DNA from: an uncultured Candidatus Saccharibacteria bacterium
Lineage (GTDB): Bacteria; Patescibacteriota; Minisyncoccia; Phycocordibacterales; SBAW01
Direction: 5' to 3'
Length of the DNA stretch: 50,972 bases
Assembly: GCA_964615415.1 (NCBI GenBank)
Contig: CAZTNI010000004.1
Location: 1 to 50,972 of the forward strand
Part shown: piece by piece, positions 1-41,837 of the stretch
Layout of the letters: each line of letters begins with the position of its first letter
Numbering within the stretch: the stretch's first letter is position 1
Translations under genes and position numbers: made by a program
Notes under the pieces: model-generated
Told to the model about the DNA's origin: nothing
The model's database searches: none
The model's input: the letters and a program-made list of their open reading frames with translations, nothing else

Positions 1-55
1 GAGCTTCATCTAGAATGATTAGATCGAAATCTACCATATTGATTAGCTTAGCCCA
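1..55. repeat. Terminal overlap: nt 1-55 are identical to nt 50918-50972 (circular contig closure; unit length 50917 bp)
   Basis: Direct comparison of the window ends: gagcttcatctagaatgattagatcgaaatctaccatattgattagcttagccca occurs at both. Confidence 0.95.
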
Positions 56-1733: not shown

Positions 1734-1786
1734 ATTATTATACCTCTGATTAGAGTTGATAAAGGATAATACTATACAAAGAACAG

Positions 1787-1859
1787 AGCCTCCCGCGAGA
1801 CTCGAACTCGCGACCGCTTGATTACAAATCAAGTGCTCTACCAACTGAGCTAGAGAGGC
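1787..1859 (-). tRNA. tRNA-Thr (anticodon UGU)
   Basis: Hand-folded cloverleaf: GCCTCTC TA GCTC AGTTGGTA GAGC A CTTGA TTTGTAA TCAAG CGGTC GCGAG TTCGAGT CTCGC GGGAGGC T. 73 nt. Confidence 0.9.
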
Positions 1860-1973: not shown

Positions 1974-2439
1974 TGGACCTGGGGAGAATCGAACTCCCGT
2001 CTTGTATAAATACTTGTGATTATTATTTACGGGGGTAGACTATTTACTTTGATTGCAGGCCAAAAAGAAATAGACAAAGAAACACACCAAGTCGGTTTAC
2101 ACAACCTTAACTCCTGCAATTAATAGGGGCTATGATTTCTCACGGCCCTCCACCACTCTATTTAACTGACTTATTAGAGTAAGTCTTGTAGTATAGAGAC
2201 TACAATCCTAATCTCTCACACTACATCGTGAGGTTCTTTGGTGCGCAACTTGGATTACTATGGCGTTACGCGGCCATACGATTGATGTTCGCATTCTTAC
2301 GAGCGCGGAAAGCATCAAGCGAAACAACACTGTTGTCAGTGGCGTTTGATTTGTGGATAATCTTATTTAAAGTCTACGATTACCAGAGAGACTCCCCGAA
2401 ACAATTACTTTCTTTACACAATCGAAACCAGTCAGGCCC
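1974..2439 (-). ncRNA. ssrA: tmRNA (SsrA), full length, about 466 nt
   Basis: The 5' end GGGCCUGACUGGUUUCGAUUGUG matches the tmRNA 5' consensus pattern. The 3' end is GAC-GGGAG UUCGAUU CUCCC-CAGGUCC-A. The acceptor GGGCCUG/CAGGUCC has a G3:U70 wobble and an A73 discriminator. An internal tag-like frame ends ...NRMAA-UAA, with the stop inside hairpin AUGGC-CGCGUAAC-GCCAU. There is no credible CDS in the region. Confidence 0.8.
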
Positions 2440-2535
2440 GAAGAGAGCATTTACTTTTTCCACAGACAGCGAAAAGAAATACACAAAGAAAAGTCTGCAA
2501 CCGTCCCAAGGAGGGGGACTCTGTGACTGAGAGGA

Positions 2536-2979: not shown

Positions 2980-3054
2980 ATCTACTGGTGGGAATCGAAC
3001 CCACATTGGACGTTTTTTCCAGTATCGTCTCAACGAATTGAGATTTACAGTAGA
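2980..3054 (-). ncRNA. Non-canonical tRNA-like element (75 nt): perfect acceptor and T-arm, irregular D and anticodon arms
   Basis: Acceptor TCTACTG/CAGTAGA plus T-arm GTGGG TTCGATT CCCAC. The middle folds only as an extended arm (GACGA..ACGTC) with an oversized loop around CUGGAAA. It lies in a 320-nt ORF-free gap (2854-3213). Confidence 0.4.
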
Positions 3055-3213: not shown

Positions 3214-3735
3214 TCAGTTGGAAATCTCAGCGAAACGCTTCGCAAGCTCTTCCATAGTAAGCTTGCCTTCCTTGAAGAGAGACTGAAGCTCATCGAAGCG
3301 ATTAATCTTCTCCTTAGCAGAGACAGAAGTATCCTCACGCCAAGTATAAGTCTTGCACTTACGAAGACCAGCTTCAATCATTTCCTCTTCCGTACCATTC
3401 GTAGCCATACGAACAGCGGCCTTACCATCTCGTGTAGCAGCATCACGAGTTACATCATTGAACACAGCAAGAAGCTTATCAACACCACCACAATCAGCGG
3501 CAGCTTCCTCTAATGTTTCAAACTGCGGATACTCGAAACGTTCAGCGGGAATTGAAATCTTAACAGGAATAACATCCTGTCCAGCGGGAGTGTCCGCCTT
3601 ATTGCGAACGTTGTTTGTAATCTCAACGATATTCGGACGATACTCACCAGCCTTAGCTAAACCTGCAAGAACTTCCTCATCCTTCTCAAGATACTTCTTA
3701 CCAAGAAATGCGGGCAGACGCTCGTAACGCGGCAT
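3214..3735 (-). CDS. Hypothetical protein (173 aa)
   Basis: ORF track entry in operon orientation. The overlapping plus-strand ORF is Ser/Ala-rich junk. Confidence 0.75.
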   Translation of the reverse strand: MPRYERLPAFLGKKYLEKDEEVLAGLAKAGEYRPNIVEITNNVRNKADTPAGQDVIPVKISIPAERFEYPQFETLEEAAADCGGVDKLLAVFNDVTRDAATRDGKAAVRMATNGTEEEMIEAGLRKCKTYTWREDTSVSAKEKINRFDELQSLFKEGKLTMEELAKRFAEISN

Positions 3736-3985: not shown

Positions 3986-4156
3986 TTAATCCTCAATGAT
4001 TAAAAGAACATAATCATGTACTGATGCATCTACTTCAATTACATTCTTATCATTACTACCATCTTCAGGTTGTTCAGACTTCTTACAAAACTTAAGTTCT
4101 CTATCTAAAGAGAGTCCACTATTTGCAATTTCTTGCAATAAATCCATAACTTTCAT
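3986..4156 (-). CDS. Small protein, MK(V/I)x(D/E)LI family, copy 2 (56 aa)
   Basis: Hand translation: MKVMDLLQEIANSGLSLDRELKFCKK...VLLIIED. GAGGT lies upstream. It is below the ORF-track cutoff. Confidence 0.5.
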   Translation of the reverse strand: MKVMDLLQEIANSGLSLDRELKFCKKSEQPEDGSNDKNVIEVDASVHDYVLLIIED

Positions 4157-4219: not shown

Positions 4220-4684
4220 TTAGAGGCTGTCAACTGGGACCGCGGGAGCGGGAGCGGGAGGCTGAGAATTAGAATTGTTTAGTTCATTAGTTGCCCAATA
4301 TTCTATAACATCTGCGATTTGTGGGAAGGTGAGACGAACTGGAGAATATTCTAATTGAGAATGAACTGAAATTCCTCTCTCCCTGAGTTCTTTATTTGTT
4401 GGATAGTATCCATCATTCAATAAAGTTAGTTCAACTCCCCCAAACTTAAAACCATACTTTTCTGGAAAACCATAGAATTCCTGAACTTCATAGGGAAGAT
4501 TTAAAGCTTGGCCTAGAAAGTGTAAGTCATTATCAAACTTTCCGAGTCCTGAAATTTCACAGGCTACACCGAGACAGCAATAAGAATTATCAAACTCTTT
4601 CAACCTACCTGTTGTTTGACGAAGCCTTCCAGACCTAAGTTCCTTGCATAGATTCATGCAATTGTTAAATTGGGTTTGGTTCAT
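4220..4684 (-). CDS. YCCLGVA-motif family protein, copy 1 (154 aa; Pro/Ala-rich C-terminal tail)
   Basis: Shares LRSGxxxQ...YCCLGVACEIS...LNDxG...IADxIxYW with 5391..5762 and 5764..6222. Confidence 0.8.
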   Translation of the reverse strand: MNQTQFNNCMNLCKELRSGRLRQTTGRLKEFDNSYCCLGVACEISGLGKFDNDLHFLGQALNLPYEVQEFYGFPEKYGFKFGGVELTLLNDGYYPTNKELRERGISVHSQLEYSPVRLTFPQIADVIEYWATNELNNSNSQPPAPAPAVPVDSL

Positions 4685-4797
4685 CTTACGTCATCTCCGT
4701 TAATAAATTTCATAACTATTGCTACTATTCCTACAGCGCACAAAAACATTACTGTTGCCATACCTATAATACTATAGGGATAAAGGGTACACATCAT
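4681..4797 (-). CDS. Small hydrophobic peptide (38 aa)
   Basis: Hand translation: MMCTLYPYSIIGMATVMFLCAVGIVAIVMKFINGDDVR. There is an ATGA overlap with the neighbouring gene at each end. Confidence 0.45.
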   Translation of the reverse strand: MMCTLYPYSIIGMATVMFLCAVGIVAIVMKFINGDDVR

Positions 4798-5272: not shown

Positions 5273-5307
5273 ATTCCTCTCAGTTAAAGTAAAAGTACAT
5301 ACAACAA
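5273..5307 (-). promoter_or_regulatory. Conserved post-tRNA leader, copy (TTGTTGTATGTAC...GAGAGGA)
   Basis: Minus strand reads aaTTGTTGTATGTACttttactttaactGAGAGGAat-ATG. Related copies are at 1734-1786, 6872-6911, 8048-8086 and 8372-8411. Confidence 0.5.
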
Positions 5308-5380
5308 TTCCCCCAGCGGAACTCGAATCCGCAACCTAGTGATTAAAAGTCACTTGCTCTACCAGTTGAGCTATGAGGGA
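5308..5380 (-). tRNA. tRNA-Lys (anticodon UUU)
   Basis: TCCCTCA TA GCTC AACTGGTA GAGC A AGTGA CTTTTAA TCACT AGGTT GCGGA TTCGAGT TCCGC TGGGGGA A. 73 nt. Confidence 0.9.
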
Positions 5381-5390: not shown

Positions 5391-5762
5391 TTAACTCTTT
5401 GCAATTACCTTTTCGATTTCATCTGCGATTTCTTTGAAAGATGTTCCATTGTCATTCATTGAGGTTAATGCATAAACTAGAAAAGGAAGGTTTCCAAAAG
5501 CACTTCTGAATCCGTACATTTCCCTTACTGTTGGACTATTAACAAGAGCAGTATCCTCATCAGCATCAGGAAAAATTACTGCATAATTCGTTTCACTATT
5601 TGTCAGTTTCCATTCAACTCCGGCAAGGTCGTATGCTACACCCAGACAACAATACTTGTTATCATAACTGCGAAGACAATTTTGACCTTGCTCATACTTC
5701 CCAGACCTCAGAGCTTCAACAAGCTTAGTGAGGTTTTCTTTTTGTGTTTGAGTGAGAGACAT
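5391..5762 (-). CDS. YCCLGVA-motif family protein, copy 2 (123 aa)
   Basis: MSLTQTQKENLTKLVEALRSGKYEQGQNCLRSYDNKYCCLGVAYDL...MNDNGTSFKEIADEI. Confidence 0.8.
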   Translation of the reverse strand: MSLTQTQKENLTKLVEALRSGKYEQGQNCLRSYDNKYCCLGVAYDLAGVEWKLTNSETNYAVIFPDADEDTALVNSPTVREMYGFRSAFGNLPFLVYALTSMNDNGTSFKEIADEIEKVIAKS

Positions 5763-5763
5763 T

Positions 5764-6222
5764 TTATTCCTCTATTGTAATGTTATCAATCCAATACTGA
5801 ATAATATCCGCAATCATTGAGAAAGTAAACTCTCCCGAATCATTGAGAACATCCAATCTAACTTCAGTATAAGCTCGGAGAAAGGTTTGATCCTTAATCA
5901 TCTTTTGTTCAAACACACTAGCTTGGTCTTCTCTACTGTATACATCCGACAACATTAAACCACGAGAATTTTCAAGCCCGAAATATTTAGTAACATCAAA
6001 TGGCATGGACGTAGAACTTGCAACATCCTTGTTAATTTCGTAACAAAGATTATTTGCAATATTGTATTCCCATTTACCAAGATTGGAAATTTCACAGGCT
6101 ACACCGAGACAACAGTAACCAGCCTCAGTTTTAAGCAAGTCTGTAGCTTGTTTATACTTTCCAGAACGTAGAGCAGCAATCCATTCTTGGATGCGTTGTT
6201 TCTGTACTAGTGTGAGAGACAT
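5764..6222 (-). CDS. YCCLGVA-motif family protein, copy 3 (152 aa)
   Basis: MSLTLVQKQRIQEWIAALRSGKYKQATDLLKTEAGYCCLGVACEIS...LNDSGEFTFSMIADIIQYW. Confidence 0.8.
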   Translation of the reverse strand: MSLTLVQKQRIQEWIAALRSGKYKQATDLLKTEAGYCCLGVACEISNLGKWEYNIANNLCYEINKDVASSTSMPFDVTKYFGLENSRGLMLSDVYSREDQASVFEQKMIKDQTFLRAYTEVRLDVLNDSGEFTFSMIADIIQYWIDNITIEE

Positions 6223-6670: not shown

Positions 6671-6790
6671 TTTACTTCCTCCTTGAAAAGTGAAATAATG
6701 AGTGGAACAAATACCCTCTTTCGGAATTGAACCGAAATATCTGGAGCCAAAGTCCAGTGCATTAGCCAATTATGCTAAGAGGGAGAGTTT

Positions 6791-6871: not shown

Positions 6872-6911
6872 TTTATTTCTCCTCTAAAGTGAAGGTACAT
6901 ACAAACAAAAG
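6872..6911 (-). promoter_or_regulatory. Conserved post-tRNA leader, copy
   Basis: Minus strand reads cTTTTGTTTGTATGTACcttcactttAGAGGAGaaataaa-ATG. Confidence 0.5.
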
Positions 6912-6995
6912 TGCCCCATCCCGGACTCGAACCGAGACGCTATTTCTAGCGAGAGATTTTAAGTCTCTTGTGTCTGCCAGTTTCACCAATGGGGC
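6912..6995 (-). tRNA. tRNA-Leu (anticodon UAA), class II with a long variable arm
   Basis: Acceptor GCCCCAT ... anticodon arm AGAGA CTTAAAA TCTCT, variable arm CGCTAGAAATAGCG, T-arm CTCGG TTCGAGT CCGGG, then ATGGGGC A. 84 nt. Confidence 0.9.
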
Positions 6996-7430: not shown

Positions 7431-7595
7431 TTAAAATCTCCAGTTAAGTCTTACAATCAGAGTCCAACGCCAGAAATCAAGAGTGAGTGTCCAATTACGC
7501 TCAGTAATCTTGTTTTCTTTATCACTGGGATAGCAATAAAGCCATACTCCAAGACCTTCAAGAAACTTCTCACTCTTTCTAGTTTCAATTTGCAT
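7431..7595 (-). CDS. Hypothetical small protein (54 aa)
   Basis: Hand translation: MQIETRKSEKFLEGLGVWLYCYPSDKENKITERNWTLTLDFWRWTLIVRLNWRF. The ATG directly follows the TAA of the upstream gene. Confidence 0.4.
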   Translation of the reverse strand: MQIETRKSEKFLEGLGVWLYCYPSDKENKITERNWTLTLDFWRWTLIVRLNWRF

Positions 7596-7805
7596 TTACC
7601 TTTTCCTCGATACAAGGTTAGACAACTGACGGAGATTCTCTTTCTCTTCTCCGCGGAAATAAACCAGAGTTGGAGCTGTCTTGTGAGAAAATACCATAGC
7701 TCCCATGTACTTTTGAACACGGGAGCATTTCACACAAGTTGTTGTTTCTGGAAGAACTTCGAGGCGAGCGGGAGAGATTTCAGAGCGACAGATTGAGCAA
7801 ATCAT
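7596..7805 (-). CDS. DksA/TraR-type C4 zinc-finger protein (69 aa)
   Basis: MICSICRSEISPARLEVLPETTTCVKCSR shows the CxxC-(17)-CxxC pattern with the ARL..P signature typical of TraR/DksA C4 fingers. Confidence 0.7.
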   Translation of the reverse strand: MICSICRSEISPARLEVLPETTTCVKCSRVQKYMGAMVFSHKTAPTLVYFRGEEKENLRQLSNLVSRKR

Positions 7806-8086: not shown

Positions 8087-8371
8087 TTAAAGCTTCACTC
8101 CCCAACGATTGAGAACAAAAATGCGGGCCTGCGGGTGAAACTTTCGCAAGTCCTTGATAGAAGTGCAAGAATCCAATTTCAATCCATGAGAATAAATCTT
8201 CCTATCCCCAAGCTTCTTCCACGTACGATAAAGTTCGCAAGTGAACTGAGAGACAGAGAAATTACGCTTACTCATGAACTGATGAGTCAAAGAATCAGGC
8301 TCTCGCATCTTCTTGGCGATATTCAAACAACGAGCAAGAGATTCTCTGAATTCAGCTTCGGCTCTTCCCAT
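8087..8371 (-). CDS. Hypothetical protein (94 aa after trimming)
   Basis: The N-terminus of track ORF 8087..8440 overlaps tRNA-Met. It was trimmed to the ATG at 8369-8371 (MGRAEAEF...), which follows AAAGAGGAATTAAAT. Confidence 0.65.
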   Translation of the reverse strand: MGRAEAEFRESLARCLNIAKKMREPDSLTHQFMSKRNFSVSQFTCELYRTWKKLGDRKIYSHGLKLDSCTSIKDLRKFHPQARIFVLNRWGVKL

Positions 8372-8411
8372 ATTTAATTCCTCTTTGTAAGAGTTATACA
8401 ACAAAACAAAA
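8372..8411 (-). promoter_or_regulatory. Conserved post-tRNA leader, copy
   Basis: Minus strand reads TTTTGTTTTGTTGTATAACTCTTACAAAGAGGAattaaat-ATG. Confidence 0.55.
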
Positions 8412-8483
8412 TGGACCCAGCGAGATTTGAACTCGCGCACTTCCGATTATGAGTCGGCCGCTCTACCGCTGAGCTATGGGTCC
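8412..8483 (-). tRNA. tRNA with CAU anticodon (elongator Met, or Ile2 if C34 is lysidinylated)
   Basis: GGACCCA TA GCTC AGCGGTA GAGC G GCCGA CTCATAA TCGGA AGTGC GCGAG TTCAAAT CTCGC TGGGTCC A. 72 nt. It lacks the initiator-type three G:C pairs in the anticodon stem. Confidence 0.85.
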
Positions 8484-9044
8484 GAAATACGGTTTATCCT
8501 AGTTTCATCACCGTAAGTTTTTTAACTAACTAGGACTCAGGCTAGTCATTATATTCGCCGCGCGTCAGACTATTATGGCGTTAAGATATTATCTTTCTCT
8601 GTTTATATTGGAATCCCAATACTTTAGAGTACGCCTGCAATTGAGCGCGAGCTAGCTAGTTTCATCTTTCATATTAACGAGAGGTGAGAAACTAGCAAAC
8701 ATATCCTAACGCGGTTTGTTTCAGAGAGCCATACACACAACAAACCATAACAGTTGTGTATAGCTTACCACAGATAGGGATTTATATACTCATCATCGTT
8801 GCCCTATCAGCACTAGATTGAGGATAGATTATTCAACATATCATCGAAATGTGTTGAATTTTCGGAATCTATCATTCCGCCCTTTCAATGTAGGGATACA
8901 CGTTATGTCCCGTAATACTGACATAACACCAAATAAAGGACGATAACCTAGAAAACGCAGCGTGAACTGGCCCCTTTTGTTATCTAATGTGTTCACGCAC
9001 ACTAGACTTTTTGTGGGGACTAGGATAACATACCGTCCAACAAT
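8484..9044 (-). ncRNA. Candidate large structured ncRNA (about 560 nt, ORF-free, hairpin-dense), bounded by a tRNA-like element and tRNA-Met
   Basis: There is no ORF above about 27 codons in any frame, while the rest of the genome is densely coding. Perfect stems include 8961-8967/8991-8997, 8903-8909/8920-8926, 8831-8838/8853-8860, 8735-8741/8753-8759, 8655-8663/8688-8696 and 8498-8504/8528-8534. The strong promoter at 9245-9273 lies upstream. Confidence 0.45.
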
Positions 9045-9763: not shown

Positions 9764-9857
9764 ATTCCTTGATTCACGAATATATCGGTCTGCCTTATTC
9801 ACACTCTCCTCCCAAGTTAAGAATGTACTAGCACTAAGTCTGGCTCCCCACTTTAAC

Positions 9858-10160
9858 TAAAATTCAACTATTCGAGGATTCAAGGATTCGAGGATTCAAC
9901 TAGCCTCTACCCCCTCCTCCCTGTCCTAGCTAGTGTCATTCTGCTACACTAGGCAATAGCTTCCTATCTCTACTAGTGTCTATTAGACACACATAGTAGG
10001 TAGGTTGTTTATTATTTTTTTTTGTAACAATACAGTAACAACTACAGCCTACCCCCTAATCTGGCACAGTCCTTGAAAGAGGACACTATCCAGCTACAGG
10101 GGTAGCCCTACCCTAGGCTTGAATCCTAGAATAGTCGAATAGTTGAATAGTTGAATTTTA
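9858..10160. repeat. Iteron-like repeat block: a 16-bp perfect inverted repeat plus 8-bp-periodic direct repeats, flanking a core of about 210 bp with an AT-rich tract
   Basis: taaaattcaactattc (9858-9873) is the reverse complement of gaatagttgaatttta (10145-10160). aggattc occurs three times at 9875, 9883 and 9891, with a reverse-complement copy at 10121. gaatagt occurs three times at 10129, 10137 and 10145. The tract gtttattatttttttttgtaac is at about 10007-10028. Further gaatagttga-like copies are at 10189-10198 (reverse complement) and 11189-11198. Confidence 0.75.
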
Positions 10161-10241
10161 ATTACAGTTAGGTTCAAAAGTAATTAAGTTCAACTATTAC
10201 ATTTATTGTTACAGTTAGTGCTAGTAAGCAATAAGAGCACT

Positions 10242-10893: not shown

Positions 10894-11496
10894 CGACCTA
10901 ACGGTAGCCAAGTGTGGCACCGCACTACCCTACATAGCAACTCGCGTGCTAGAATATGTAAGTTGTTGTGTGACAATGACTTAGCTTTTTCGTTAATGTA
11001 ATCTTAATGTTCTGTTCGGGTGCGTTTCGGGGTATTGGTGCCACACTGTAGCGGCGTTGCCGCAACGTTCAGAAACTATACACTTTCATGATGTTTGAGA
11101 ATCATTCTCAATCTTAATGTAGCACGCTTGTAAGCAAGTGCTTGCTTGCATATCCTGTGCTTGCTTGACGTGTGAATAGATGCGAGTGGAATAGTTGACG
11201 TGTAAACTAAAAGCACTTTACTCTGCAAAGCACTTTATAACATAAAGAGGGGGAGGGAAAAATCACACGGTCCATCGCGCGGAAAGAGACTCAGATAATT
11301 TTTTCAAAAAATTCCTAGAAAGAGAATAAGATTAATGATTATTATGAGTTAAATATAATAATGTTAATAATGGAAATGGGATAATCCTCCGGTATGACTA
11401 GCCTAGCACCATTGCCTTGCCAGCGCGGGAGTGTTAGATTAGATTCCAGAGGAAGGCCAGAGAATCAATAACTATTTTAGAGAGGTTTTTAGCAAA
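10894..11496. promoter_or_regulatory. Divergent control region with several short repeats and an AT-rich block
   Basis: gtgtggcacc (10912-10921) pairs with ggtgccacac (11037-11046). gtgcttgcttg occurs twice (11138, 11157). ttgacgtgt occurs twice (11165, 11195). Palindrome aattttttcaaaaaatt is at 11297-11313. An AT-rich tract spans 11320-11390. GCGCGGGAG is at 11423-11431. Confidence 0.6.
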
Positions 11497-11619
11497 ATGG
11501 CTACATTTAAGAATCCAAGACCTCCTAAATTCACAGGTCAGAAGTTCATTGATGCTCAGAATAAGAGAAATACTAAGAAGACTAATGTCTCGAATAAGAG
11601 AACTCCTAAGAAAAAGTGA
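11497..11619 (+). CDS. Small basic protein (40 aa)
   Basis: Hand translation: MATFKNPRPPKFTGQKFIDAQNKRNTKKTNVSNKRTPKKK. AGAGAGG lies upstream. It is below the ORF-track cutoff. Confidence 0.45.
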   Translation: MATFKNPRPPKFTGQKFIDAQNKRNTKKTNVSNKRTPKKK

Positions 11620-11626
11620 GCCAATC

Positions 11627-11875
11627 ATGGTCGAGAATAATGGATACACATTCATTAAGTTTAAAAATGGCTTTGTTGAGGCTTCACTTAGGGATTTCGA
11701 GAAGGTTAAGCACTTCTGGATGAACAGTGCTGATTCTTTCATTGAAGTCGCGGGAATGTATGGTGAGAGAATCGTGATTAAACGCGCAGATGTTGTGTAT
11801 ATTGTGGAATGCACACCAGAAATCAAAGCTCGCATAGATGAAGATAATAGAGAGCGGGAGTTAAAAGGTGAGTAA
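11627..11875 (+). CDS. Hypothetical protein (82 aa after trimming)
   Basis: Track ORF 11549..11875 trimmed to MVENNGYTFIKF... The upstream part overlaps the small basic ORF in another frame. Confidence 0.6.
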   Translation: MVENNGYTFIKFKNGFVEASLRDFEKVKHFWMNSADSFIEVAGMYGERIVIKRADVVYIVECTPEIKARIDEDNRERELKGE

Positions 11876-12413
11876 TAAAGCCTTAGACATGTCAAAAGTG
11901 CACGAAAAAAATGAATTTCGACCTCCTTCTTCTGCGACAGGCTTTAGAGTCAAGAAATGGAGGCCGAAGTATGATATGATTGTTGCAGGACACATCATGG
12001 GTAAGAGTAACATAGAACTAGCTGCTGAATATGATGTGACTCCTGTTACAATCGCTAACATTCTTCGTGCTGACCATGCGCAGACTCTCATAGCAGAGGC
12101 GCACAGAAGGATTAGAAAGGATACAATCGAGAAGACTAGTGAGAATGTGGATATGCAAGCTCAGATTAGAGAGCTTGCTTTAAAGAGAACTAAAGAATTC
12201 CTTGAGAAGGATGTTCTCGCGGAGAATTCTCCTTTTGCTTTCATTGATAGAGTGCATAAGTTAGTATCTACTGGAAGTGAGAGAAGTGTTCAAGTTGCTC
12301 CCGTCCAGGTAAATGTGCAGAACAACCAAGTGGTTGACAATTCGCAGAAAGAACTGAAAGAGGTTCATCTGAATCGCATTGCAACCGCGCTTGAAATCGT
12401 GAAAGATGGATGA
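11868..12413 (+). CDS. terS: Putative terminase small subunit
   Basis: Sits immediately upstream of TerL and overlaps it. Has an HTH-like segment (SNIELAAEYDVTPVTIANIL). 181 aa. Confidence 0.6.
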   Translation: MSNKALDMSKVHEKNEFRPPSSATGFRVKKWRPKYDMIVAGHIMGKSNIELAAEYDVTPVTIANILRADHAQTLIAEAHRRIRKDTIEKTSENVDMQAQIRELALKRTKEFLEKDVLAENSPFAFIDRVHKLVSTGSERSVQVAPVQVNVQNNQVVDNSQKELKEVHLNRIATALEIVKDG

Positions 12414-14028
12414 CGATATCAAGCAATACACACAAGCTGACATTGATGCTGCAAGAAGGCGCGGAGAACAGAAGTTAGAACATTTAACTTCTGATCAAAT
12501 CAAGCATCTTAGAATCAAATCTAAGAATAACTTATTCTTCTTAGCTTATGGTATTCTAGGATTCGACCTCTTGCATCCAGTGTTGCATAGAGATTACTGT
12601 AGATGGTTTGATACAACGAGAGATACTGCTCAGTTTAGATTAAGCCTTCTACCAAGATCTCACTTTAAGAGTACAATCAACACGATATCTGATACGATTC
12701 AAGTTCTACTGCCAGATGATTTAGGTACAAGTCTCTATCCTAGAAATCTTGGACCTAATGTTAGAATCCTAATAGCCCACGAAATTGACTCAAAAGCTCA
12801 GCAATTCCTGTCTGCTATTAGAGATTTCGTCTATACTGGTGATGTGCTGCTTACTTTGTTTCCTGAATTAACTCCCTCTAAAGGAAGAAAGGATAACAAA
12901 GGTGAACTTGAATTAAATAGAGACAAGATTTGGCCAGAAGCTACTGTCTCTACAATGGGTGTAGGTGGCAAGAGACAAGGCTCTCACTTCAATTATCTAA
13001 AGCCTGACGACTTGCAAGGTGAGTCTGCCACATATTCTAAAGCAGAACTAGTTGCTACTAAGCAATGGGTAGATAACTTACAGTCTTATCTCTTGACTAC
13101 TTCAATTGATAAGATTGACTTTGCAGGTACAAGATGGGCATTCGATGATGTGTGGAAGCATATCATGGATATCTATGGAGATTCTTTAAAGATCTATCAT
13201 AGAGCTGTGATTGAGAAGAATCCAGTAACAGGTAAAAGAGAACCAATCTTTCCTGTTACATATGATAAAGATGGAAACATCATCTCTGGATTCACAGAAA
13301 AGTCTCTTGACATTCTCAAACGTAACAAGAAGGTTTGGACAGCTCAGTATCTTAACAATCCTTTAGAAGGTGCTTCTACCTTCCAAGAGGATTGGCTTAG
13401 ATATTGGAATTGGTTCCAAGATAGAAGACATGTTGCTATCTTTTCTGGTAATGAGAAAGAACCAACAGCTGTCTATGATATCTCTGACTTAGATAAAGTC
13501 ATATTCATAGACCCAGCTATGACTGGTAATTTTGGTATAGCTGTAACTGGAACTACTCCTAAAGGTCAACATTTAGTTCTTGACTCTATTAAGAGAGAGT
13601 TTGAACAGCCGGAGTTTATCAACTGGCTATTTCAAGCTGTGAATAAGTGGAAGCCTAGATTAGTTGTGATTGAAGGTGTTCTATTCTCACATCTCTATCA
13701 ACATTGGTTAGTTAGAGAGATGTCAGCTAGACACACAAGATTCCCAATTGAAGCTGCTTCTACTAGACAGAAAGCTAAGGAAGAGAGAATTACTGGACTT
13801 TCACATTACTTTGAAGCCGGACAAATTCTCTTCCACCAAGAGCAACATGATATCATACAAGAGTTTCGAGAATTTGGTGCATCTACTAACATCCACATTC
13901 TCGATGCTCTTGCTTATGGACCTGAGTATTGGAGAAATCCTCCACCGCAACATGTACTCAATTCTATAAGAGAAGCAGAATATACTGTCATGGGAAGGGA
14001 CAATCTCACTGGTTACTCGGAGATGTGA
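12406..14028 (+). CDS. terL: Terminase large subunit
   Basis: 540 aa, directly upstream of the portal. P-loop-like LLPRSHFKST. C-terminal RNase H-like nuclease signatures: VIFIDPA, VVIEGV, HILDALAY. Confidence 0.85.
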   Translation: MDDDIKQYTQADIDAARRRGEQKLEHLTSDQIKHLRIKSKNNLFFLAYGILGFDLLHPVLHRDYCRWFDTTRDTAQFRLSLLPRSHFKSTINTISDTIQVLLPDDLGTSLYPRNLGPNVRILIAHEIDSKAQQFLSAIRDFVYTGDVLLTLFPELTPSKGRKDNKGELELNRDKIWPEATVSTMGVGGKRQGSHFNYLKPDDLQGESATYSKAELVATKQWVDNLQSYLLTTSIDKIDFAGTRWAFDDVWKHIMDIYGDSLKIYHRAVIEKNPVTGKREPIFPVTYDKDGNIISGFTEKSLDILKRNKKVWTAQYLNNPLEGASTFQEDWLRYWNWFQDRRHVAIFSGNEKEPTAVYDISDLDKVIFIDPAMTGNFGIAVTGTTPKGQHLVLDSIKREFEQPEFINWLFQAVNKWKPRLVVIEGVLFSHLYQHWLVREMSARHTRFPIEAASTRQKAKEERITGLSHYFEAGQILFHQEQHDIIQEFREFGASTNIHILDALAYGPEYWRNPPPQHVLNSIREAEYTVMGRDNLTGYSEM

Positions 14029-14226: not shown

Positions 14227-14452
14227 GGCGAATCTTCAGACATTAGAAGAGGAAAAGCTTTATACTGATGAAGTTAAGCTTCTGTTCTCTTCTATTGCTT
14301 GGCGCTGGTTCCATGCAAATCTTAATCGAAAGTTAACTACTATTAAATTATTTGGTATCATCAAAAAGTCTATCTACGTTCGTGACTTGAGAGATATCTT
14401 CACTCTCCTTTTCGGTTCTCCTAATGGCTTATCCGAAGGAAGTATATCTTAG
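14213..14452 (+). CDS. Hypothetical protein (79 aa)
   Basis: ORF track entry that overlaps its neighbours at both ends. Confidence 0.5.
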   Translation: MMLNEANLQTLEEEKLYTDEVKLLFSSIAWRWFHANLNRKLTTIKLFGIIKKSIYVRDLRDIFTLLFGSPNGLSEGSIS

Positions 14453-16304
14453 TCCAGAACGCGAAGAAACGATTAAACTCTGGTTAATGTGGCAGATTAA
14501 CAATCACAGAATGGAACGCTCTGGGTTTGTTGATGATATAACAAGATACAATAAGGATTACTGGGCTGTACCTAACGAGACAGTTAGAAAGTTTCCATTC
14601 CAGGGTGCAGCTAATATCGTAATTCCAATTACTGCTATTGTTGCTGAAGCTGTACATGCTAGAAATATGCAGAGACTTTTCTCACAAGACCAGTTAGTTA
14701 ACCTTAAGTTCTTTGATCCTAACTGGTCACCATTCGATAGAGATATTGAGTTATTCTTAGATTGGCAATTGATGAATCAGATGAAGTTTAAAGCAAAGGC
14801 TGAGTCTGCAATCTGGGAACAAGAACTCTTTGGAACTGGTGTGATTAAAGATGGTTACATGAGATTAGTGAGAAATGTAATCTACGAGGAAAATGAATTT
14901 GAAGTTCCAGTCTATACTGGTCCTTGCATAGATAGCGTTCCACTTGCCAATTTCTTAATGCCATTCTCTGCATTAGATCCACAAACAGCTCCTTGGTGTG
15001 GAGAAGAGCATGTTACTAATCAATATGAACTGAAGCAGTTAGAACAAGCTGGATTATTTAGACCTGGAACTTATGATAGACTTTCTAACTACTACACTAT
15101 GGCTAATAATCTGAACTTGTCTTCGGATAAGTTTAGACAAAGTGTAGAAAAACTTCAGAATCAGCAACCTGCTTGGCCTAGCAGACTTGGTTGGTACGAA
15201 ATCTATGCAGGCTTTGCTCCACAAGAAAGTGATGGTAAACAGAAGAAGCTAATTGAATATGTGTTCTTATATCACTTAGATTCTAATACATTACTTTCTA
15301 TTAGACATAATTGGTTCTATGATGGAAGAAGACCATACGAAATTGGAGTGATGCAGAAGGTTGCTAATCGCTGGCTTGGTATTGGTATTGCTAAACAAAA
15401 CGAACAAATCCAAAGGTCTATTACTACTCAACATAGACAGCGACTAGATGCGGGAACAATCGCCAACGCTACTATGATGAAAGTTAAGAGACTCTCTGGT
15501 ATATCTCCAAGTGAACCTGTGTATCCTGGTAAGTTATGGTTCGTTGAAGATATGGGAGACATTGAGCCATTACAGTTCAATGGAACATATCCTACTGCTG
15601 CTAATAATGAACAACAGACATTGTACTATGGTCAGCAAAGGTCTGGTATCAATGACTTAACTTTAGGTATGAATCAAGTTGGTACGCCAGGTACAGCCAC
15701 TTCAGACATGGCGAGACTGCAAGAAGGTAGTCACAAGCATGATTACTACCACTCTAACATTCTTGATTTCTTATCTAGAGTCATTAGAAACACAGTAGGT
15801 AATATTTGTCAGTGGGGAACTTCTGACCCAAGATACTTCGAGTTTAGAGAGAATGGAGACATAGTAAGACAATTCTTTGACTTACCTCCTTCTCTATTAA
15901 AGTCTGGTATTCTTGCTGAGATTAGAATGGTTTCTCAGTCTGATAATAAGCTTCTGGATAGAAACAACTGGATGCAATTGGTAACAATCTTCCAGCAATA
16001 CTATGCCAATGCTTTCCAGTCTGCTTCTTTGATTGATCCTAAGATTGCTGTGATGGTTGCAGCACAAAGCATTAAAGCATCGACCGAAGCTTTCGAGCAT
16101 ATTCTTAACACATTCGATATTCCAAATGCTCATAAACTTTCACTTCGGCAATTGATAGATGGACTCCTTCCTCAAGTTGGAAATAACGACGGAAGAGCTT
16201 TACAGTCTCCGGGATCTCAGCAAAGCTTCCCAGTTTCAGGTAATGGTGCGGGTATTCAAACGGAAATGCCAACACTCACTGGAGAAGTTGGGCCAAGCGT
16301 CTGA
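14424..16304 (+). CDS. Portal protein
   Basis: 626 aa, located after TerL and before the scaffold and capsid genes. Confidence 0.8.
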   Translation: MAYPKEVYLSPEREETIKLWLMWQINNHRMERSGFVDDITRYNKDYWAVPNETVRKFPFQGAANIVIPITAIVAEAVHARNMQRLFSQDQLVNLKFFDPNWSPFDRDIELFLDWQLMNQMKFKAKAESAIWEQELFGTGVIKDGYMRLVRNVIYEENEFEVPVYTGPCIDSVPLANFLMPFSALDPQTAPWCGEEHVTNQYELKQLEQAGLFRPGTYDRLSNYYTMANNLNLSSDKFRQSVEKLQNQQPAWPSRLGWYEIYAGFAPQESDGKQKKLIEYVFLYHLDSNTLLSIRHNWFYDGRRPYEIGVMQKVANRWLGIGIAKQNEQIQRSITTQHRQRLDAGTIANATMMKVKRLSGISPSEPVYPGKLWFVEDMGDIEPLQFNGTYPTAANNEQQTLYYGQQRSGINDLTLGMNQVGTPGTATSDMARLQEGSHKHDYYHSNILDFLSRVIRNTVGNICQWGTSDPRYFEFRENGDIVRQFFDLPPSLLKSGILAEIRMVSQSDNKLLDRNNWMQLVTIFQQYYANAFQSASLIDPKIAVMVAAQSIKASTEAFEHILNTFDIPNAHKLSLRQLIDGLLPQVGNNDGRALQSPGSQQSFPVSGNGAGIQTEMPTLTGEVGPSV

Positions 16305-18078: not shown

Positions 18079-18990
18079 ATGTTAGTACAGGGTAATTTTG
18101 CTCCGCTCTTTCGCGCTGGTTTGAGAGAAGACTTCCGTGATAGTTATCAGATGTATGAGCCTGACTATCCGAAGTTCCTCAAGACAATGACGATGGACGG
18201 ACCGGAAATTAAAGCTGCCGTCATCTCTGGGTTGAACAGACTTGTTGAACTTGGTGATGGTGAAGCTTTAACGTACGATAATCCGCAGATGTCTCCTGTT
18301 GTGATGGGTGTTGACAAGGAGTTCGGTCTTGGCTTCATGCTCACACAGAAGACTGTTGAAGATGATAAGTATAATAAGGCTAACCAGTCTGCGAAGTGGC
18401 TTGGCGAAGCTGTTAGAATGACTGAGGAATATCGTGCTGCTCAGTTGCTCGATGATGCTTTCGCCGGGAATACTTTCAAGGGCTTCGATAACCTTTCTCT
18501 TATCAACTCTGCTCACACATTGCTTGGTTCTGATTTAACTGTTAGCAATCAGGTTGCAGGTAATACTGAACTTTCTGTTACTGGTATTACTGCAATTCAG
18601 AATCTTGCGATGCAGCTCAAGAATGAGAATGGTTTCCCGATGCGTTGCAACTTGACTAAGCTCATTGTTTCTAATGATGCTGGTCAGTTGAATAAGGCTC
18701 GGCAGATTCTCGGTTCTGCTCTCGAACCGTTTACTGCTAACAATCAGGATAACGCTCTTAAGAAGGCGTTTGGTCAGATTGAGCCGGTTGTGTCTATCTA
18801 TAAGACATCTACAACGTCGTACTTCATGCTTGATGACAACCTGAATGATGCGTGGTTTGTCACTCGCAGACCTGCTACGTTTGATGATACTTATGATTTT
18901 AACACACGCGCAATGCTTAACTCTGTCACAACTCGTTTCTTGATTTGGGTTGTTGATTGGAGAGGTTGGTTCGGCTCTAACCCCACATAA
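18079..18990 (+). CDS. Major capsid protein
   Basis: 303 aa. Assigned from its position after the scaffold and its typical size. It is followed by a second capsid-associated gene and a strong terminator. Confidence 0.75.
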   Translation: MLVQGNFAPLFRAGLREDFRDSYQMYEPDYPKFLKTMTMDGPEIKAAVISGLNRLVELGDGEALTYDNPQMSPVVMGVDKEFGLGFMLTQKTVEDDKYNKANQSAKWLGEAVRMTEEYRAAQLLDDAFAGNTFKGFDNLSLINSAHTLLGSDLTVSNQVAGNTELSVTGITAIQNLAMQLKNENGFPMRCNLTKLIVSNDAGQLNKARQILGSALEPFTANNQDNALKKAFGQIEPVVSIYKTSTTSYFMLDDNLNDAWFVTRRPATFDDTYDFNTRAMLNSVTTRFLIWVVDWRGWFGSNPT

Positions 18991-37464: not shown

Positions 37465-37691
37465 TTGATAGAATCCTTATGAATAACTACACTAGTGTTG
37501 TTTACTATCTTCATGCAATAGGGCCAAGCTGATTCGGGGTATCCTTTAGAATAGCAAAAATTTTCGTGCTTAACAAAAAGAATTATGAAAATAGCTAAAA
37601 AGAATAATGCTAGTGCAAAAAAGAGATCATACTTATTTATATAGATTGTTTTTCTTAAAGCCATATCAATCCTTCCTCCAATGGTAGACAA
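37461..37691 (-). CDS. Small membrane protein (76 aa)
   Basis: ORF track entry with TM segment LFFALALFFLAIFIILFV. Confidence 0.65.
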   Translation of the reverse strand: MSTIGGRIDMALRKTIYINKYDLFFALALFFLAIFIILFVKHENFCYSKGYPESAWPYCMKIVNNTSVVIHKDSIK

Positions 37692-38838
37692 TGTCTTGTT
37701 GTGCTGTATCTAGTTCGTTAGTTACAAGCTTCATACTTACTAGAGCTTCAAGGAAGCTATTGATTCTATGCGGCTCTGCTGCTGATTGGAAATGACGAAG
37801 AATAGTAGCACGAGCAACAGTACCATTCTCCTTGATATAATCTGCCATATCTGTCATTTCTAAACTATACTCATTCTTACCAACTCCAGCGAATACTAAC
37901 GGAAGTTTCTTCTCTGTGAGAGTGAGAATGTTAATAGCCATCTCAGCAGTAGGCCAATCAATAACTAACTCATCACCTTTAGCTACTGTTAGAATCATTG
38001 CAAGTTTCAGAACATGAACGTGCTTTCTAGCCATATAACCTGCCATCTTCTTAGGAATAGCAGTAGTGCTCATGTTCTGATACCAGTGTTCTAACTTCTC
38101 CCGCGCTTCTGGTGTGAAGGTGAAGGTGCCGGAGAGATTAGAGGAGATATGAACTAAATCATGAACTAGCTTCTTCTCTATCTCATTGAACGCAGCTTCA
38201 CCACCATTCTCCATTTGCTTATTAAAGAACAATCCACGCTTAGAGAGTTCTTTCTCATAGACGAATATCACACGAGAAGCAAAGCCACCAGAGATTGACT
38301 CTTCTGGCATGTTAGCACTAATCCAACCGGGAGTAGTACAAGCAGAGAAGTTTAAGCAGGGTCTTTCTGTACCTTCAAATCCGCGAGCCATTGTTCCAAC
38401 TGAAAGCTCACGATTAGCATCGAACAGAGATGTAAGTAAGTCATACATCTCCTTACCACCTTTTAGGATTAGGTCGGAGAATTCTTTGACTAGGACTGAG
38501 GCAGAGGAATCGGGAGATTGAATGATAGTATTAACAAGAGATTCTTTAGTAATCAGAGTCGGAGGACGTTTGATATTGGGGTCTTGCACTTGGAGGTCAA
38601 TACCATAATCCATCGCTGTTGACTTTCTCATTCCTGGAGGGCCGACGAACATTATGTATAAATGTGGGAAACATTCCCACCCTCCTAACTCTGCGCGCGG
38701 GATAAAGACACGCCTACGCAAAGCAGAAGCAAGTGTACCAACTCCGGCCCAGAATACAAAAGATTCTGGAGCTTCCGAACGAGGTACAACCCATTCTCTG
38801 AATGATTGAAGCCAGTTCTCTGTTTTGCGTTGGGTCAT
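37666..38838 (-). CDS. P-loop NTPase, putative replicative helicase (SF3/VirE-like)
   Basis: Walker A VGPPGMRKST. 390 aa. It is adjacent to the DNA polymerase. Confidence 0.55.
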   Translation of the reverse strand: MTQRKTENWLQSFREWVVPRSEAPESFVFWAGVGTLASALRRRVFIPRAELGGWECFPHLYIMFVGPPGMRKSTAMDYGIDLQVQDPNIKRPPTLITKESLVNTIIQSPDSSASVLVKEFSDLILKGGKEMYDLLTSLFDANRELSVGTMARGFEGTERPCLNFSACTTPGWISANMPEESISGGFASRVIFVYEKELSKRGLFFNKQMENGGEAAFNEIEKKLVHDLVHISSNLSGTFTFTPEAREKLEHWYQNMSTTAIPKKMAGYMARKHVHVLKLAMILTVAKGDELVIDWPTAEMAINILTLTEKKLPLVFAGVGKNEYSLEMTDMADYIKENGTVARATILRHFQSAAEPHRINSFLEALVSMKLVTNELDTAQQDIVYHWRKD

Positions 38839-39974: not shown

Positions 39975-40228
39975 CTTACACTAACATCCCTTTCAAACTT
40001 ATAGGCTCTATCACACACTACACAGATAAACAAATTCTCGTGTGCTTTGAGAAGAGGATTTACTTTAGCGAAAAGCTTTGAGTTGCAACGATCTATATAT
40101 TCATATATGGTATCTTTACCTTTTGCGTACTCACCCTTACATCTAAACTCTTCCTTATCAACAAGCAATCTAACTACTGGCTGCCACTCCAGAGACTTCT
40201 TCGGATTGATTATCGTCGGGGACTTCAA
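39971..40228 (-). CDS. Hypothetical Cys-containing protein (85 aa) inside the polymerase split
   Basis: ORF track entry. Cysteines occur at FRCKG, RCNS and ICVVCD. The start lies 59 nt inside the end of the polymerase N-fragment ORF. Confidence 0.55.
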   Translation of the reverse strand: MKSPTIINPKKSLEWQPVVRLLVDKEEFRCKGEYAKGKDTIYEYIDRCNSKLFAKVNPLLKAHENLFICVVCDRAYKFERDVSVR

Positions 40229-41837
40229 TTTCTAGTTCCTCCCTCGGCATTGTTTGAGCGTTAAATCCAGTATCATCATAGTATTTAGCACACGACCAGC
40301 GAGATGTTTCTGTTCCACAGACTTTCCAGACAGAGCGAACTCTTCCATCTGGAGAGATACCAATGTTGAAGTAAGAAGAAACTAACTTCTCATTACCTCT
40401 AAGATTAAGAATCAGACGAACTAAGCCAAGCTTCTTACGCCAAGCATTCTTAGCTTCTTCTGTTTTCTTCTCTGCTATCTGTCCCTTAATATAACCAATC
40501 AAACTAACAAGAGCATCTTGGTCTGCTGTAACTCCGCCCTTGCGATTCTTACGCTCAGGTAAGCCAAGCTCGACATAGAGATAGTCTTGAACTTTCTTAT
40601 GAGATTGGATATTAATTACTTTACCAGCCATGTGCATGAACGTAAGATAGTCTAACTCCCAAGACTTCTTGAGATAATCCTGGAGGAACTTCTTACGCTC
40701 TGCATCCACATAGAATCCGAACTTAGTCATGCGATACGAGACTCGCAGAGACTTCATTTTATACTGAAAGTATGGATTTTCATGCATACCTTTTTCTAAG
40801 AAGTGCTCAAGAGCTTCGTAGGTTACTACACAGTCTAAACAGTTATAAATGTATAGAGATTCTCTGTTTGCAATCTTCTCTGAGTGAGACTTAGAATCCT
40901 CATCAAAGGTTATATCTGACCAGTAGCAAGGCCGCCAAGTGTAAATGGAACAGAGAAAGTCAAGCCCCTTTGGTAATTCTGGTTGCGTAATATACTGAGC
41001 AACCATTGTATCGAAAGTCGCGTCTGGAGATTCGATTCCGTGGAAGAGTCTTTTAACAGTGATATCAAATGACGAGTTATGGTAAACTGTTCTGGTGAGC
41101 TTGGGAAGTAAAGTTCTGAGGAGCTGTAATGTACTCTCCGTTTTGCAGACAAAACATATGGCACGTTCCCTTGAGAGTCCAAAGCCCACACAGAGTATTC
41201 CGAGATTGTCTCTTCTGGTTTCGATGTCAATGGTAATGTACTTGCCAGATTCACAATGGGCAATAATTTCTTGTGCGAGATTATGTTGCTCAATCGGATC
41301 TGCTGTAACTGTGAATCTGTCATTATAGACTCTCTGCTTTCCTTGTTTGTATAGGAATGCTTTTGCTATGTCAGCATCGAAGACTGGAAACAAAGAATTG
41401 TTAAATGCTACATCCCGCGGATTGTGAGTCGGGAGAGTAGGGATACCATTATATAACAAAGGGGAACCACGCCATGCATAGATACCATACTTTTGTGTAA
41501 TGTATCTGAGAGGCTGGTCCCCAAGTAGAATAATCAATTTTATCTTTGTCTTGTAAGCTTCAATGTAAGCTTTAATCTTCTGTAAGCCAGTAGCTAGAGC
41601 TTCACTTCCTTCTAAGTAACGGAAGTCATTATCATCCGGTCTTTGCTGAGATAGAGAAGCAACAACACAAGAATCAAGGGGGATAGGTAAACAAGTTGCG
41701 AGGGTGGCCCCGGCATCATTGTCTAAAAGCTTACCTTTTTCTTCCTCTTCTCTAGTAGGGAAGTCTGTGATAATTAAGACTTCGCTACCCGCTGTGCCTC
41801 TCCACGGGGTTATCTTTTGATTGACGTGGGAGTCCAT
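40170..41837 (-). CDS. Family-A DNA polymerase, N-terminal fragment: UDG-like domain, 3'-5' exonuclease, and the polymerase N-terminal half
   Basis: GSEVLIITDFPTREEEEKGKLLDNDAGATL is a family-4 UDG-like motif. ITIDIETR and YNCLDCVVTYE are exonuclease motifs. ...DGRVRSVWKVCGTETSRWSCAKYYDDTGFNAQTMP is the equivalent of TGRLS..PNLQNIP. The ORF then ends after a 22-aa acidic tail. Confidence 0.8.
   Translation of the reverse strand: MDSHVNQKITPWRGTAGSEVLIITDFPTREEEEKGKLLDNDAGATLATCLPIPLDSCVVASLSQQRPDDNDFRYLEGSEALATGLQKIKAYIEAYKTKIKLIILLGDQPLRYITQKYGIYAWRGSPLLYNGIPTLPTHNPRDVAFNNSLFPVFDADIAKAFLYKQGKQRVYNDRFTVTADPIEQHNLAQEIIAHCESGKYITIDIETRRDNLGILCVGFGLSRERAICFVCKTESTLQLLRTLLPKLTRTVYHNSSFDITVKRLFHGIESPDATFDTMVAQYITQPELPKGLDFLCSIYTWRPCYWSDITFDEDSKSHSEKIANRESLYIYNCLDCVVTYEALEHFLEKGMHENPYFQYKMKSLRVSYRMTKFGFYVDAERKKFLQDYLKKSWELDYLTFMHMAGKVINIQSHKKVQDYLYVELGLPERKNRKGGVTADQDALVSLIGYIKGQIAEKKTEEAKNAWRKKLGLVRLILNLRGNEKLVSSYFNIGISPDGRVRSVWKVCGTETSRWSCAKYYDDTGFNAQTMPREELEIEVPDDNQSEEVSGVAASS

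Follow-up and report, generated by a model that had tools for sequence, protein, structure and literature searches.

One-piece transfer-messenger RNAs (tmRNAs) of bacteria, such as the SsrA of E. coli (Rfam family RF00023), join a tRNA-like domain with the G3:U70 pair and a T arm to a long helix P2, pseudoknot 1 (PK1), a short spacer and a GCN resume codon, followed by a tag that ends in AA, a stop codon in the loop of helix 5 and a pseudoknot-rich 3′ domain. Here we describe a gene in a 50,972-nt stretch of DNA (contig CAZTNI010000004.1, called the window below) that is predicted to share each of these features with the bacterial molecule and that matches its covariance model over the full length. 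We consider it very probable that the gene encodes a true one-piece tmRNA, maintained by selection in a tailed phage of 50.9 kb and virulent type, and we propose that this RNA rescues ribosomes via host factors.

The window tmRNA also departs from the bacterial type. E. coli SsrA is 363 nt long and has the 10-residue tag ANDENYALAA, whereas the window RNA measures 466 nt and its tag has 25 residues, is net basic and ends in MAA. Moreover, it lies on a virulent-type phage with no SmpB among its 70 open reading frames (ORFs) of at least 70 amino acids, its D-loop analogue is shorter, its CCA is not encoded, and the tmRNA finder ARAGORN misses the gene.

Complete tmRNA genes, often beside tRNA genes, are likewise found in isolate phages (mycobacteriophage Bxz1 and cluster C, large siphophages of Streptomyces and Lactococcus); we know of no phage-encoded tmRNA with a demonstrated role in infection. 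Nor is such a role demonstrated for any phage tmRNA in PMC9004378, PMC7162821 or PMC12656738. An ARAGORN survey counted tmRNAs in 402 of 18,146 phage genomes (PMC9004378), and huge phages carry both tmRNAs and SmpB (PMC7162821). A previous interpretation of the window, made from its letters alone (the sequence-only reading), had supposed that phage tmRNAs occur mainly in very large phages. This holds for most carriers in the first part of Table S1 of PMC9004378, which exceed 78 kb, but the same part contains seven carriers of at most 62 kb, including Salinibacter phage SRUTV-1 (50,672 bp) and mycobacteriophage Daenerys (58,043 bp), and the virulent Bradyrhizobium elkanii phages, with an average of 62,920 bp, all carry a tmRNA (PMC12656738). 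The window phage resembles SRUTV-1 and the B. elkanii phages as a mid-sized carrier, and genome size is thus no barrier. The two-piece tmRNAs of Methylophilales phage Melnitz and the pelagimyophages (17 of 47 Melnitz-like contigs carry a tmRNA; PMC9004378) are comparable in being phage-borne, patchy within their phage group and unaccompanied by an integrase, but the window gene has the standard order, no riboswitch was found near it, and its genome is about one third the size.

Since phage tmRNAs were already known, at a frequency of about 2.3% among phage genomes and with rare carriers in this size class (a few between 40 and 63 kb), the window tmRNA adds a divergent member and not a new molecule or mechanism. 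What is new is a divergent family that, unlike the tmRNAs of isolate phages, has no detectable DNA similarity to any record in the phage collection and has its own long and conserved tag of basic character; the failure of ARAGORN, the tool of the published surveys (PMC9004378, PMC7162821), to see the family; and the swapping of modules between near-identical genomes.

A complete one-piece tmRNA gene

The gene reads from 2439 to 1974 on the minus strand (GGGCCUGACUGGUUUCGAUUGUG ... GACGGGAGUUCGAUUCUCCCCAGGUCCA; Table 1 lists this and the other features). RF00023 covers 1971-2439 on that strand with model positions 1-374 of 374, at 73.7 bits (E 7e-27) against a gathering score of 47 bits. Rfam assigned the gene to RF00023 and not to the permuted family, and the gene order is accordingly that of a standard one-piece tmRNA. 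The sequence-only reading had seen the two ends of a tRNA-like domain, and these were found in place: the acceptor strands GGGCCUG and CAGGUCC and the T arm GGGAG-UUCGAUU-CUCCC. The alanine identity pair G3:U70 and the discriminator A are also present. Across the five sequences compared below, all seven acceptor pairs are kept, with G3:U invariant and pair 6 covarying (UA/CG/AU). Within the D-loop analogue, GGUUUCGA is invariant in the five family members and aligns with the Rfam consensus GGaUUCGA. The bases that follow the discriminator A are CUU.

Comparative analysis of helices and pseudoknots

Four further genomes or contigs carry a homologous tmRNA of 442-494 nt, each placed like the window gene upstream of the helicase module. 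A syntenic set of contigs of about 45-54 kb, recognised by its SNF2 helicase homologues, includes L131 (NCBI JAXOUH010031018.1, 51,687 bp; helicase 61% identical; tmRNA 8219-8660, 94.5 bits), L263 (SRR23479362; helicase 55%; tmRNA 4272-4765, nhmmer 249 bits) and L133 (SRR21686403, 46,687 bp; helicase 52%; tmRNA 8302-8770, 73.2 bits). The fourth, L128 (SRR14271340; tmRNA 11360-11812, 80.6 bits), stands outside the list of helicase homologues. We aligned four sequences first and five after L263 had been added.

In the four-sequence alignment, 66 pairs covering the acceptor stem, three P2 segments, both PK1 stems, helix 5, a long hairpin and the T arm were 97.7% paired, 24 of them with double changes, compared with 42-49% in slid controls, in which the pairing partners were moved by 1-3 columns. 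With five sequences, 52 core pairs spanning the acceptor stem, T arm, P2, both PK1 stems and helix 5 were 98.1% paired (slid controls 40-47%), 22 of them with compensatory changes, and none of 500 shuffles reached the observed pairing. RNAalifold, in a separate run, recovered the nested helices; of its 84 pairs, 27 were compensatory. The 22 pairs of P2, in three segments, are 93-100% paired in the five sequences, six of them with compensatory changes, and the six pairs of helix 5 are 96% paired, two to three of them likewise compensatory. Both PK1 stems are 100% paired, and double changes affect five of five pairs in stem 1 and five of seven in stem 2; stem 1 exists in three wholly different versions (AGUCU/AGACU, CGUCC/GGACG and CACUC/GAGUG) and stem 2 in four. 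Taken together, the comparison shows that selection maintains both the RNA structure, through compensatory changes in the core helices, and the coding frame across the lineage. The window RNA thus combines all parts of a tmRNA: the tRNA-like domain with its G3:U pair, P2, PK1, the tag frame with its stop in helix 5, and a 3′ domain that is plausibly rich in pseudoknots.

This 3′ domain is less uniform. The core of the PK2 segment can be built from UUGUAGU/ACUACAA, a loop CUCUAU pairing with AUAGAG, and a nested hairpin GACUUA/UAAGUC, complementarity having been checked for each. The layout recurs in L263, where compensatory changes are seen (CUCUGU/ACAGAG and GACUAU/AUAGUC), and at this position in L128, L131 and L133 H-type knots can be drawn from unrelated sequence. 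In the PK4 segment a U-rich loop strand (CUUU...UAUUU) can pair with the downstream AAAGUAAAUA, and hand drawing gave an H-type layout for each of the five members, built from differing sequences. Between the two segments lies a long hairpin that is identical in L128 despite replacement of both of its flanking segments; it may be the equivalent of PK3. A pseudoknot and tag architecture, whose absence would have refuted the sequence-only reading, can be built for PK1, the tag and helix 5; PK2 and PK4 were drawn by hand. Because these knots were assigned by hand, we regard the PK2-PK4 pseudoknots as plausible and not as proven.

The tag reading frame

The frame ending in ...NINRMAA-UAA, with its stop in a hairpin, was confirmed, the stop codon falling in the 8-nt loop of UAUGGC/GCCAUA. 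The resume codon had been left ambiguous among tags of 8, 12 or up to 25 residues. The RF00023 alignment sets the consensus resume codon GCA on GCC 2341-2343, 12 nt past PK1, which gives the longest of these tags, ATDNSVVSLDAFRARKNANINRMAA (25 residues). The homologous tags are ATDNSVVSLDAFRARKSGIKNINRMAA in L128 (27 residues), ATDNSVVSLSAYRNRKVARMQNRMAA in L263 (26 residues), ANDNDVVSLSEFKARKSFARSAKLAA in L131 (26 residues) and ARDNSVVSLDSYRKHKGMTFNRKAA in L133 (25 residues).

Differences in tag length are all multiples of three, including a 6-nt indel between the window and the approximately 99.5%-identical L128. Synonymous differences are frequent (GCC/GCG, GAC/GAT, AAC/AAT, UUC/UUU), the clearest being AGU/UCU for one serine, and all five tags end in AA with a last alanine codon that varies synonymously among GCG, GCC and GCA (GCG-UAA in the window). 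The +2 frame of the tag stretch has stops in five of five sequences and the +1 frame in L133 only, and an in-frame stop lies a few codons upstream of the resume codon in L131, L133 and L263. On the strength of the in-frame indels, the synonymous changes and the pattern of frames and stops, the 8- and 12-residue options were set aside; the Rfam alignment and the homologous tags speak against them as well. The tag thus evolves as coding sequence.

The amino acids of the tag are conserved across phages whose helicases are only 52-61% identical, with the consensus A-x-D-N-x-V-V-S-L-x-x-[FY]-[RK]-x-[RH]-K-...-[MLK]-A-A, and all tags are net basic (four to six Lys plus Arg against one to three Asp plus Glu). 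A basic tag conserved in the lineage points to a partner that recognises the peptide itself. The motif ...F-[RK]-A-R-K... is reminiscent of cyanobacterial tags of the type ANNIVKFARKDALVAA; a literature search on four such tags came back empty, and we do not use the likeness as evidence.

Mosaic evolution of the tmRNA

The flanking genes of L128 and the window are 99.4-99.8% identical, whereas the tmRNA region is 86% identical with many gaps. The difference is unevenly spread. The 5′ tRNA-like half, P2 and PK1 together differ by one substitution in 96 nt, and the 33-nt core of the conserved hairpin and the last 61 nt are also identical or nearly so, but the PK2 segment shows 50% and the PK4 segment 58% identity, that is, both have effectively been replaced. 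Given that the genomes differ by only about 0.3-0.6% elsewhere, we attribute this to recombination with a divergent allele and not to gradual drift.

The region leading up to G1 has changed too. L128 carries a 63-nt insertion (11293-11355) between the positions that correspond to window 2439 and 2440. It contains a hairpin AGGGUUUC...GAAACCCU, and pieces of it (GAAACCCTAC and AGACGT) recur in a different order upstream of the L263 tmRNA. In addition, 2449-2500, directly upstream of the gene, is a partial direct copy of the 3′ portion of PK4 (compared with 2040-2090). It matches 19 of the 19 specified bases of TTCTTTGTNTATTTCTTTT, shared with 2063-2081; both copies hold TTTCTTTGTnTATTTCTTTT and AAAGTAAAT at similar spacing, and each can be drawn as a stem plus a U-rich/A-rich pairing. 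The upstream copy is present in the window and L128 and absent upstream of the L131 and L133 tmRNAs. We take it for a likely scar of recombination or of partial duplication; it could also be a leader or promoter region. The idea that it forms a promoter motif found no support: its T-rich repeat occurs only twice in the window, and no convincing promoter or sigma-70-like site was found in front of the tmRNA G1.

Phage genome and distribution of the family

The first and last 55 nt of the window (1-55 and 50918-50972) are identical, which marks an overlap in the assembly of a genome that is circular or terminally redundant. The window accordingly represents a complete, circularly assembled tailed-phage genome of 50,917 bp. 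As the sequence-only reading had maintained, a full-length tmRNA thus sits in a 51-kb phage: the full RF00023 model is matched, and the same circular genome encodes TerL, portal and capsid proteins. The Pfam scan of the 70 ORFs gave no integrase or recombinase; it did identify, besides the proteins in Table 1, a GH108/PG_binding_3 endolysin, a Cpn10 co-chaperonin and a GNAT acetyltransferase.

ARAGORN found six phage tRNAs, all on the minus strand. The tmRNA gene points the same way as the leftward block that comprises small early genes, the replication genes and most of the phage tRNAs, and its expression is therefore likely to be early or middle in infection.

The protein of a neighbouring gene (3214-3735) has matches on seven contigs of at least 50 kb, all of which are the same phage, from at least two sequencing runs among the matches listed; L129 is identical to the window. 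Homologues of the 173-aa upstream neighbour occurred only on contigs of about 1 kb. DNA searches of 50,697 phage records with the tmRNA and with a 20-kb stretch of the window gave no match, and TerL, portal and helicase are only 22-30% identical to those of isolates. Judged by these comparisons, the phage is new relative to isolates, with no close isolate relative or nameable host.

Pattern scans of larger collections added no members. In IMG/VR, a family-specific two-anchor pattern gave no match, a 5′ pattern gave at least 120 loci, none of them close by blastn or nhmmer, and the tmRNA 3′ 25-mer also matched phage tRNA-Ala genes and unrelated tmRNAs. In the GTDB genomes, a tag-derived pattern, which was too loose, gave 104 matches, none a tmRNA by nhmmer. 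The single locus from a metagenome scan, L252, was a chance match inside a dehydrogenase-like ORF.

Two further one-piece tmRNAs of IMG/VR, L113 (443 nt) and L140 (369 nt), are called by Rfam and missed by ARAGORN. As the published surveys relied on ARAGORN, which misses the whole family described here and at least two other IMG/VR tmRNAs, their tmRNA counts and the impression that carriers are large phages may be biased. Such surveys may systematically miss tmRNAs of this kind, in which case the true frequency in mid-sized phages is underestimated.

Proposed role and alternative explanations

We propose the following steps by analogy with established tmRNA biology, assuming a bacterial type of working. 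The tmRNA would be transcribed together with the leftward early and replication gene block. Host RNase P would remove the 5′ leader, the 3′ end would be trimmed and the host CCA-adding enzyme would supply the CCA, after which the host alanyl-tRNA synthetase would charge the RNA via G3:U70. With host SmpB and EF-Tu, the charged tmRNA would enter ribosomes stalled on broken or non-stop mRNAs, translation would resume on GCC, and the 25-residue tag would be appended before release at UAA. The most likely benefit would be that ribosomes are kept free for phage translation when truncated mRNAs abound, be it from infection, host mRNA decay or abortive-infection RNases. Ribosome rescue would work alongside the six phage tRNAs, which serve A-ending codons. 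The phage might in this way gain rescue capacity, find relief from RNase-type defences or alter the fate of the tagged proteins, and manipulation of host ribosome rescue by the phage tmRNA is plausible.

Several observations weigh against a working tmRNA of this kind. The RF00023 alignment has low posterior probability in its middle. ARAGORN and Rfam had been named as checks, and they disagreed: Rfam reported the full-length hit, whereas ARAGORN gave no tmRNA call on the window at default settings or when relaxed down to -ps80, nor on L128, L131, L133 and L263. At -ps70 it did make a call on the window, wrongly 'permuted' yet with the same 25-aa tag. We overrode the miss because the covariance model and the comparative data support a tmRNA; it is a property of the tool and not a defining biological feature. 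A second point concerns the tag ends, which are MAA, LAA or KAA. LAA is the canonical ClpX degron ending in E. coli SsrA, and since it is the only canonical one among the three, proteolytic targeting is uncertain. Thirdly, the tmRNA is absent from the examined DNA of eight relatives (L132, L134, L253, L254, L257, L258, L259 and L261), where nhmmer --max with E up to 10 found no remnants either. This makes it an accessory gene that is not essential to the lineage; within the phages of about 45-54 kb it is accessory but recurrent. Finally, expression, alanylation, SmpB binding and tagging activity are predictions, and the window tag was compared with the tags of phage relatives.

One alternative keeps the tmRNA working but sees its main task in counter-defence: it would replace or supplement depleted or cleaved host tmRNA, or clear ribosomes stalled by abortive-infection nucleases that cut mRNA or tRNA, and the rapid swapping of pseudoknot domains would reflect an arms race. 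We hold this to be possible, though on balance unlikely. The gene lies among phage tRNAs for Lys-UUU, Gln-UUG, Leu-UAA, Thr-UGU, Arg-UCU and Met; one window ORF matches, in the Pfam scan, the Acb2/Tad1-hairpin domain of the anti-CBASS/anti-Thoeris sponge family of known anti-defence proteins; and replacement of the PK2 and PK4 segments separates genomes with 99.4-99.8% identity elsewhere. However, the E. coli tmRNA is known to tolerate the replacement of PK2-PK4, and neutral recombination therefore accounts for the mosaic just as well. Rather improbable, in our judgement, is a role in which the phage tmRNA re-programmes the fate of rescued proteins, its tag being read by a partner other than SspB or ClpX and the exchange of PK2 and PK4 reflecting selection on RNA-protein contacts and not neutral drift; the partner could be a phage factor, or another host protease or chaperone.

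We give still less credence to a decoy RNA that binds host SmpB, alanyl-tRNA synthetase or ribosomes and diverts host trans-translation without productive tagging. A phage without its own SmpB must have its RNA compete for the host protein, and MAA and KAA depart from the canonical LAA; a pure decoy, though, needs neither a tag frame under coding constraint, with its in-frame indels and synonymous substitutions, nor the PK1 and the resume-codon spacing that are strictly kept.

It is very improbable that the gene is a functionless relic, be it a decaying host ssrA from imprecise excision of a temperate ancestor or an att-site fragment. The ssrA gene is a frequent target of phage integration, and such phages carry its 3′ end (PMC9004378); the fragments at attP of temperate phages share with the window gene the sequence of the T arm and the acceptor 3′ strand. 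The patchiness among relatives and the partial PK4-region duplicate just upstream would also suit decay. Unlike those fragments, however, the window gene has its 5′ half, PK1 and tag, in other words full length with both tRNA-like halves, and no integrase is among the 70 ORFs, as the sequence-only reading had argued. Moreover, five homologues with helicases 52-61% identical keep 98% of the core pairs via 22 compensatory changes, plus the tag frame, which decay would not do.

In a metagenome-type assembly whose ends overlap by 55 nt, one might suspect that the gene is chimeric or that contaminating host DNA was fused to a phage contig, but the chance is negligible, as the same phage genome was assembled in seven contigs of at least 50 kb, from at least two runs among the matches listed, and related tmRNAs occupy the same gene position in independent assemblies of other sources (NCBI GCA_034680565.1, SRR21686403 and SRR23479362).

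With a genuine tmRNA as the preferred reading, this complete 51-kb virulent-type phage is a compact and tractable case. Its small family of homologues demonstrates selection on RNA structure and tag peptide, and natural presence/absence and module-swap variants exist in closely related genomes.

Feature coordinates and additional observations

Table 1. Positions in the window of the tmRNA, its parts and other genes of the phage
Feature	Position	Strand	Remarks
Whole tmRNA gene	1974-2439	-	mature RNA 466 nt; G1 = 2439, discriminator A = 1974
Acceptor stem, 5′ strand GGGCCUG	2433-2439	-	pairs with 1975-1981; holds G3 of G3:U
D-loop analogue ACUGGUUUCGA	2422-2432	-	tRNA-like domain
Helix P2, 5′ strand, three segments	2394-2421	-	pairs with 2002-2034
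PK1	2356-2393	-	stem AGUCU/AGACU interleaved with stem GGUAAUC/GAUUAUC
Single-stranded spacer CACAAAUCAAAC	2344-2355	-	12 nt, PK1 to resume codon; read from the sequence
Tag frame	2266-2343	-	resume GCC 2341-2343, 25 codons (ATDNSVVSLDAFRARKNANINRMAA), stop UAA 2266-2268
Helix 5, UAUGGC/GCCAUA	2259-2278	-	stop codon in 8-nt loop
Variable PK2 segment	2156-2249	-	core pseudoknot at 2156-2205
Long conserved hairpin UGGUGGAGGGCC...GCCCCUAUUA	2121-2155	-	14 pairs, 96% paired, 4 compensatory
Variable PK4 segment	2040-2119	-	stem GCAGG/CCUGC
Helix P2, 3′ strand	2002-2034	-	pairs with 2394-2421
T arm GGGAG-UUCGAUU-CUCCC	1982-1998	-	5 pairs, 100% paired, 3 compensatory
Acceptor stem, 3′ strand CAGGUCC + discriminator A	1974-1981	-	sequence and five-sequence alignment
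Orphan PK4-like copy, CAGAC...UUUCUUUGUGUAUUUCUUUU...GUCUG...AAAAAGUAAAU	2449-2500	-	directly upstream of the tmRNA gene
tRNA-Thr(UGU)	1786-1859	-	114 nt downstream of the tmRNA, same strand; ARAGORN and Rfam
tRNA-Lys(UUU)	5308-5380	-	ARAGORN
tRNA-Gln(UUG)	6712-6784	-	ARAGORN
tRNA-Leu(UAA)	6911-6995	-	ARAGORN
tRNA-Met(CAU)	8412-8483	-	ARAGORN
tRNA-Arg(UCU)	43452-43527	-	ARAGORN
U-rich tRNA trailers	1774-1807, 5295-5328, 6899-6932, 8399-8432		+ coordinates
Terminase large subunit (TerL)	12406-14028		
Portal, SU10-type	14424-16304		
Major capsid protein	18079-18990		
Primase/helicase	37666-38838		
Family A DNA polymerase (PolA)	40170-41837		UDG-like N-terminal region
Sak4-like annealing protein	44300-45130		
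PD-(D/E)XK exonuclease	45172-46209		
SNF2 helicase	across the junction of the window ends		origin of window numbering

The family A polymerase is spread over two ORFs, the larger of which bears the UDG-like N-terminus. Other Pfam matches among the ORFs were a pyrimidine-dimer glycosylase and a TSCPD-domain protein.

On the coding strand, a short U-rich trailer with the ending UUGUAU or UUGUU comes after each phage tRNA and also after the tmRNA (CUUGUUAG); it is a candidate for a common processing or termination signal. Some hundreds of nucleotides upstream of the tmRNA, at 2980-3054 on the minus strand, there is a non-canonical tRNA-like element. With 27.2 bits it falls just short of the Rfam tRNA threshold of 29, and ARAGORN does not call it; its fold is a cloverleaf in which a 4-bp 'anticodon' stem carries the loop AAAAAAC. 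Its L131 homologue at 7580-7649 (+) has a T arm identical to that of the window and a compensatory change in the acceptor stem (UCUACUG/CAGUAGA against UCUAGUG/CACUAGA), and L263 has a similar element with an A-rich loop at about 4050-4120 (+).

Among the IMG/VR loci L008-L127, many viral-contig tmRNAs (e.g. L053, L063, L068, L097, L039 and L075) start with GGGCCUGA and are of permuted types. The tags that ARAGORN predicts for these are unusually long, at 21-31 aa (e.g. AKTSTKDVVKVSMGRGFRFARGTEALAA).

At 9850-10168, the divergent intergenic region that separates the leftward early genes from the rightward structural genes, there is a 50-nt imperfect inverted repeat of short units resembling GGATTCAA and GGATTCGA. 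This is one of two spots at which L128 departs from the window (93% identity), and the repeat could be an origin or a regulatory region. Three paralogous small genes with the motif YCCLGVA(C/Y), annotated as DUF8296 in the precomputed annotation, lie at 4220-4684, 5391-5762 and 5764-6222 on the minus strand, interspersed among the tRNA genes, and relatives of the phage carry one to three copies.

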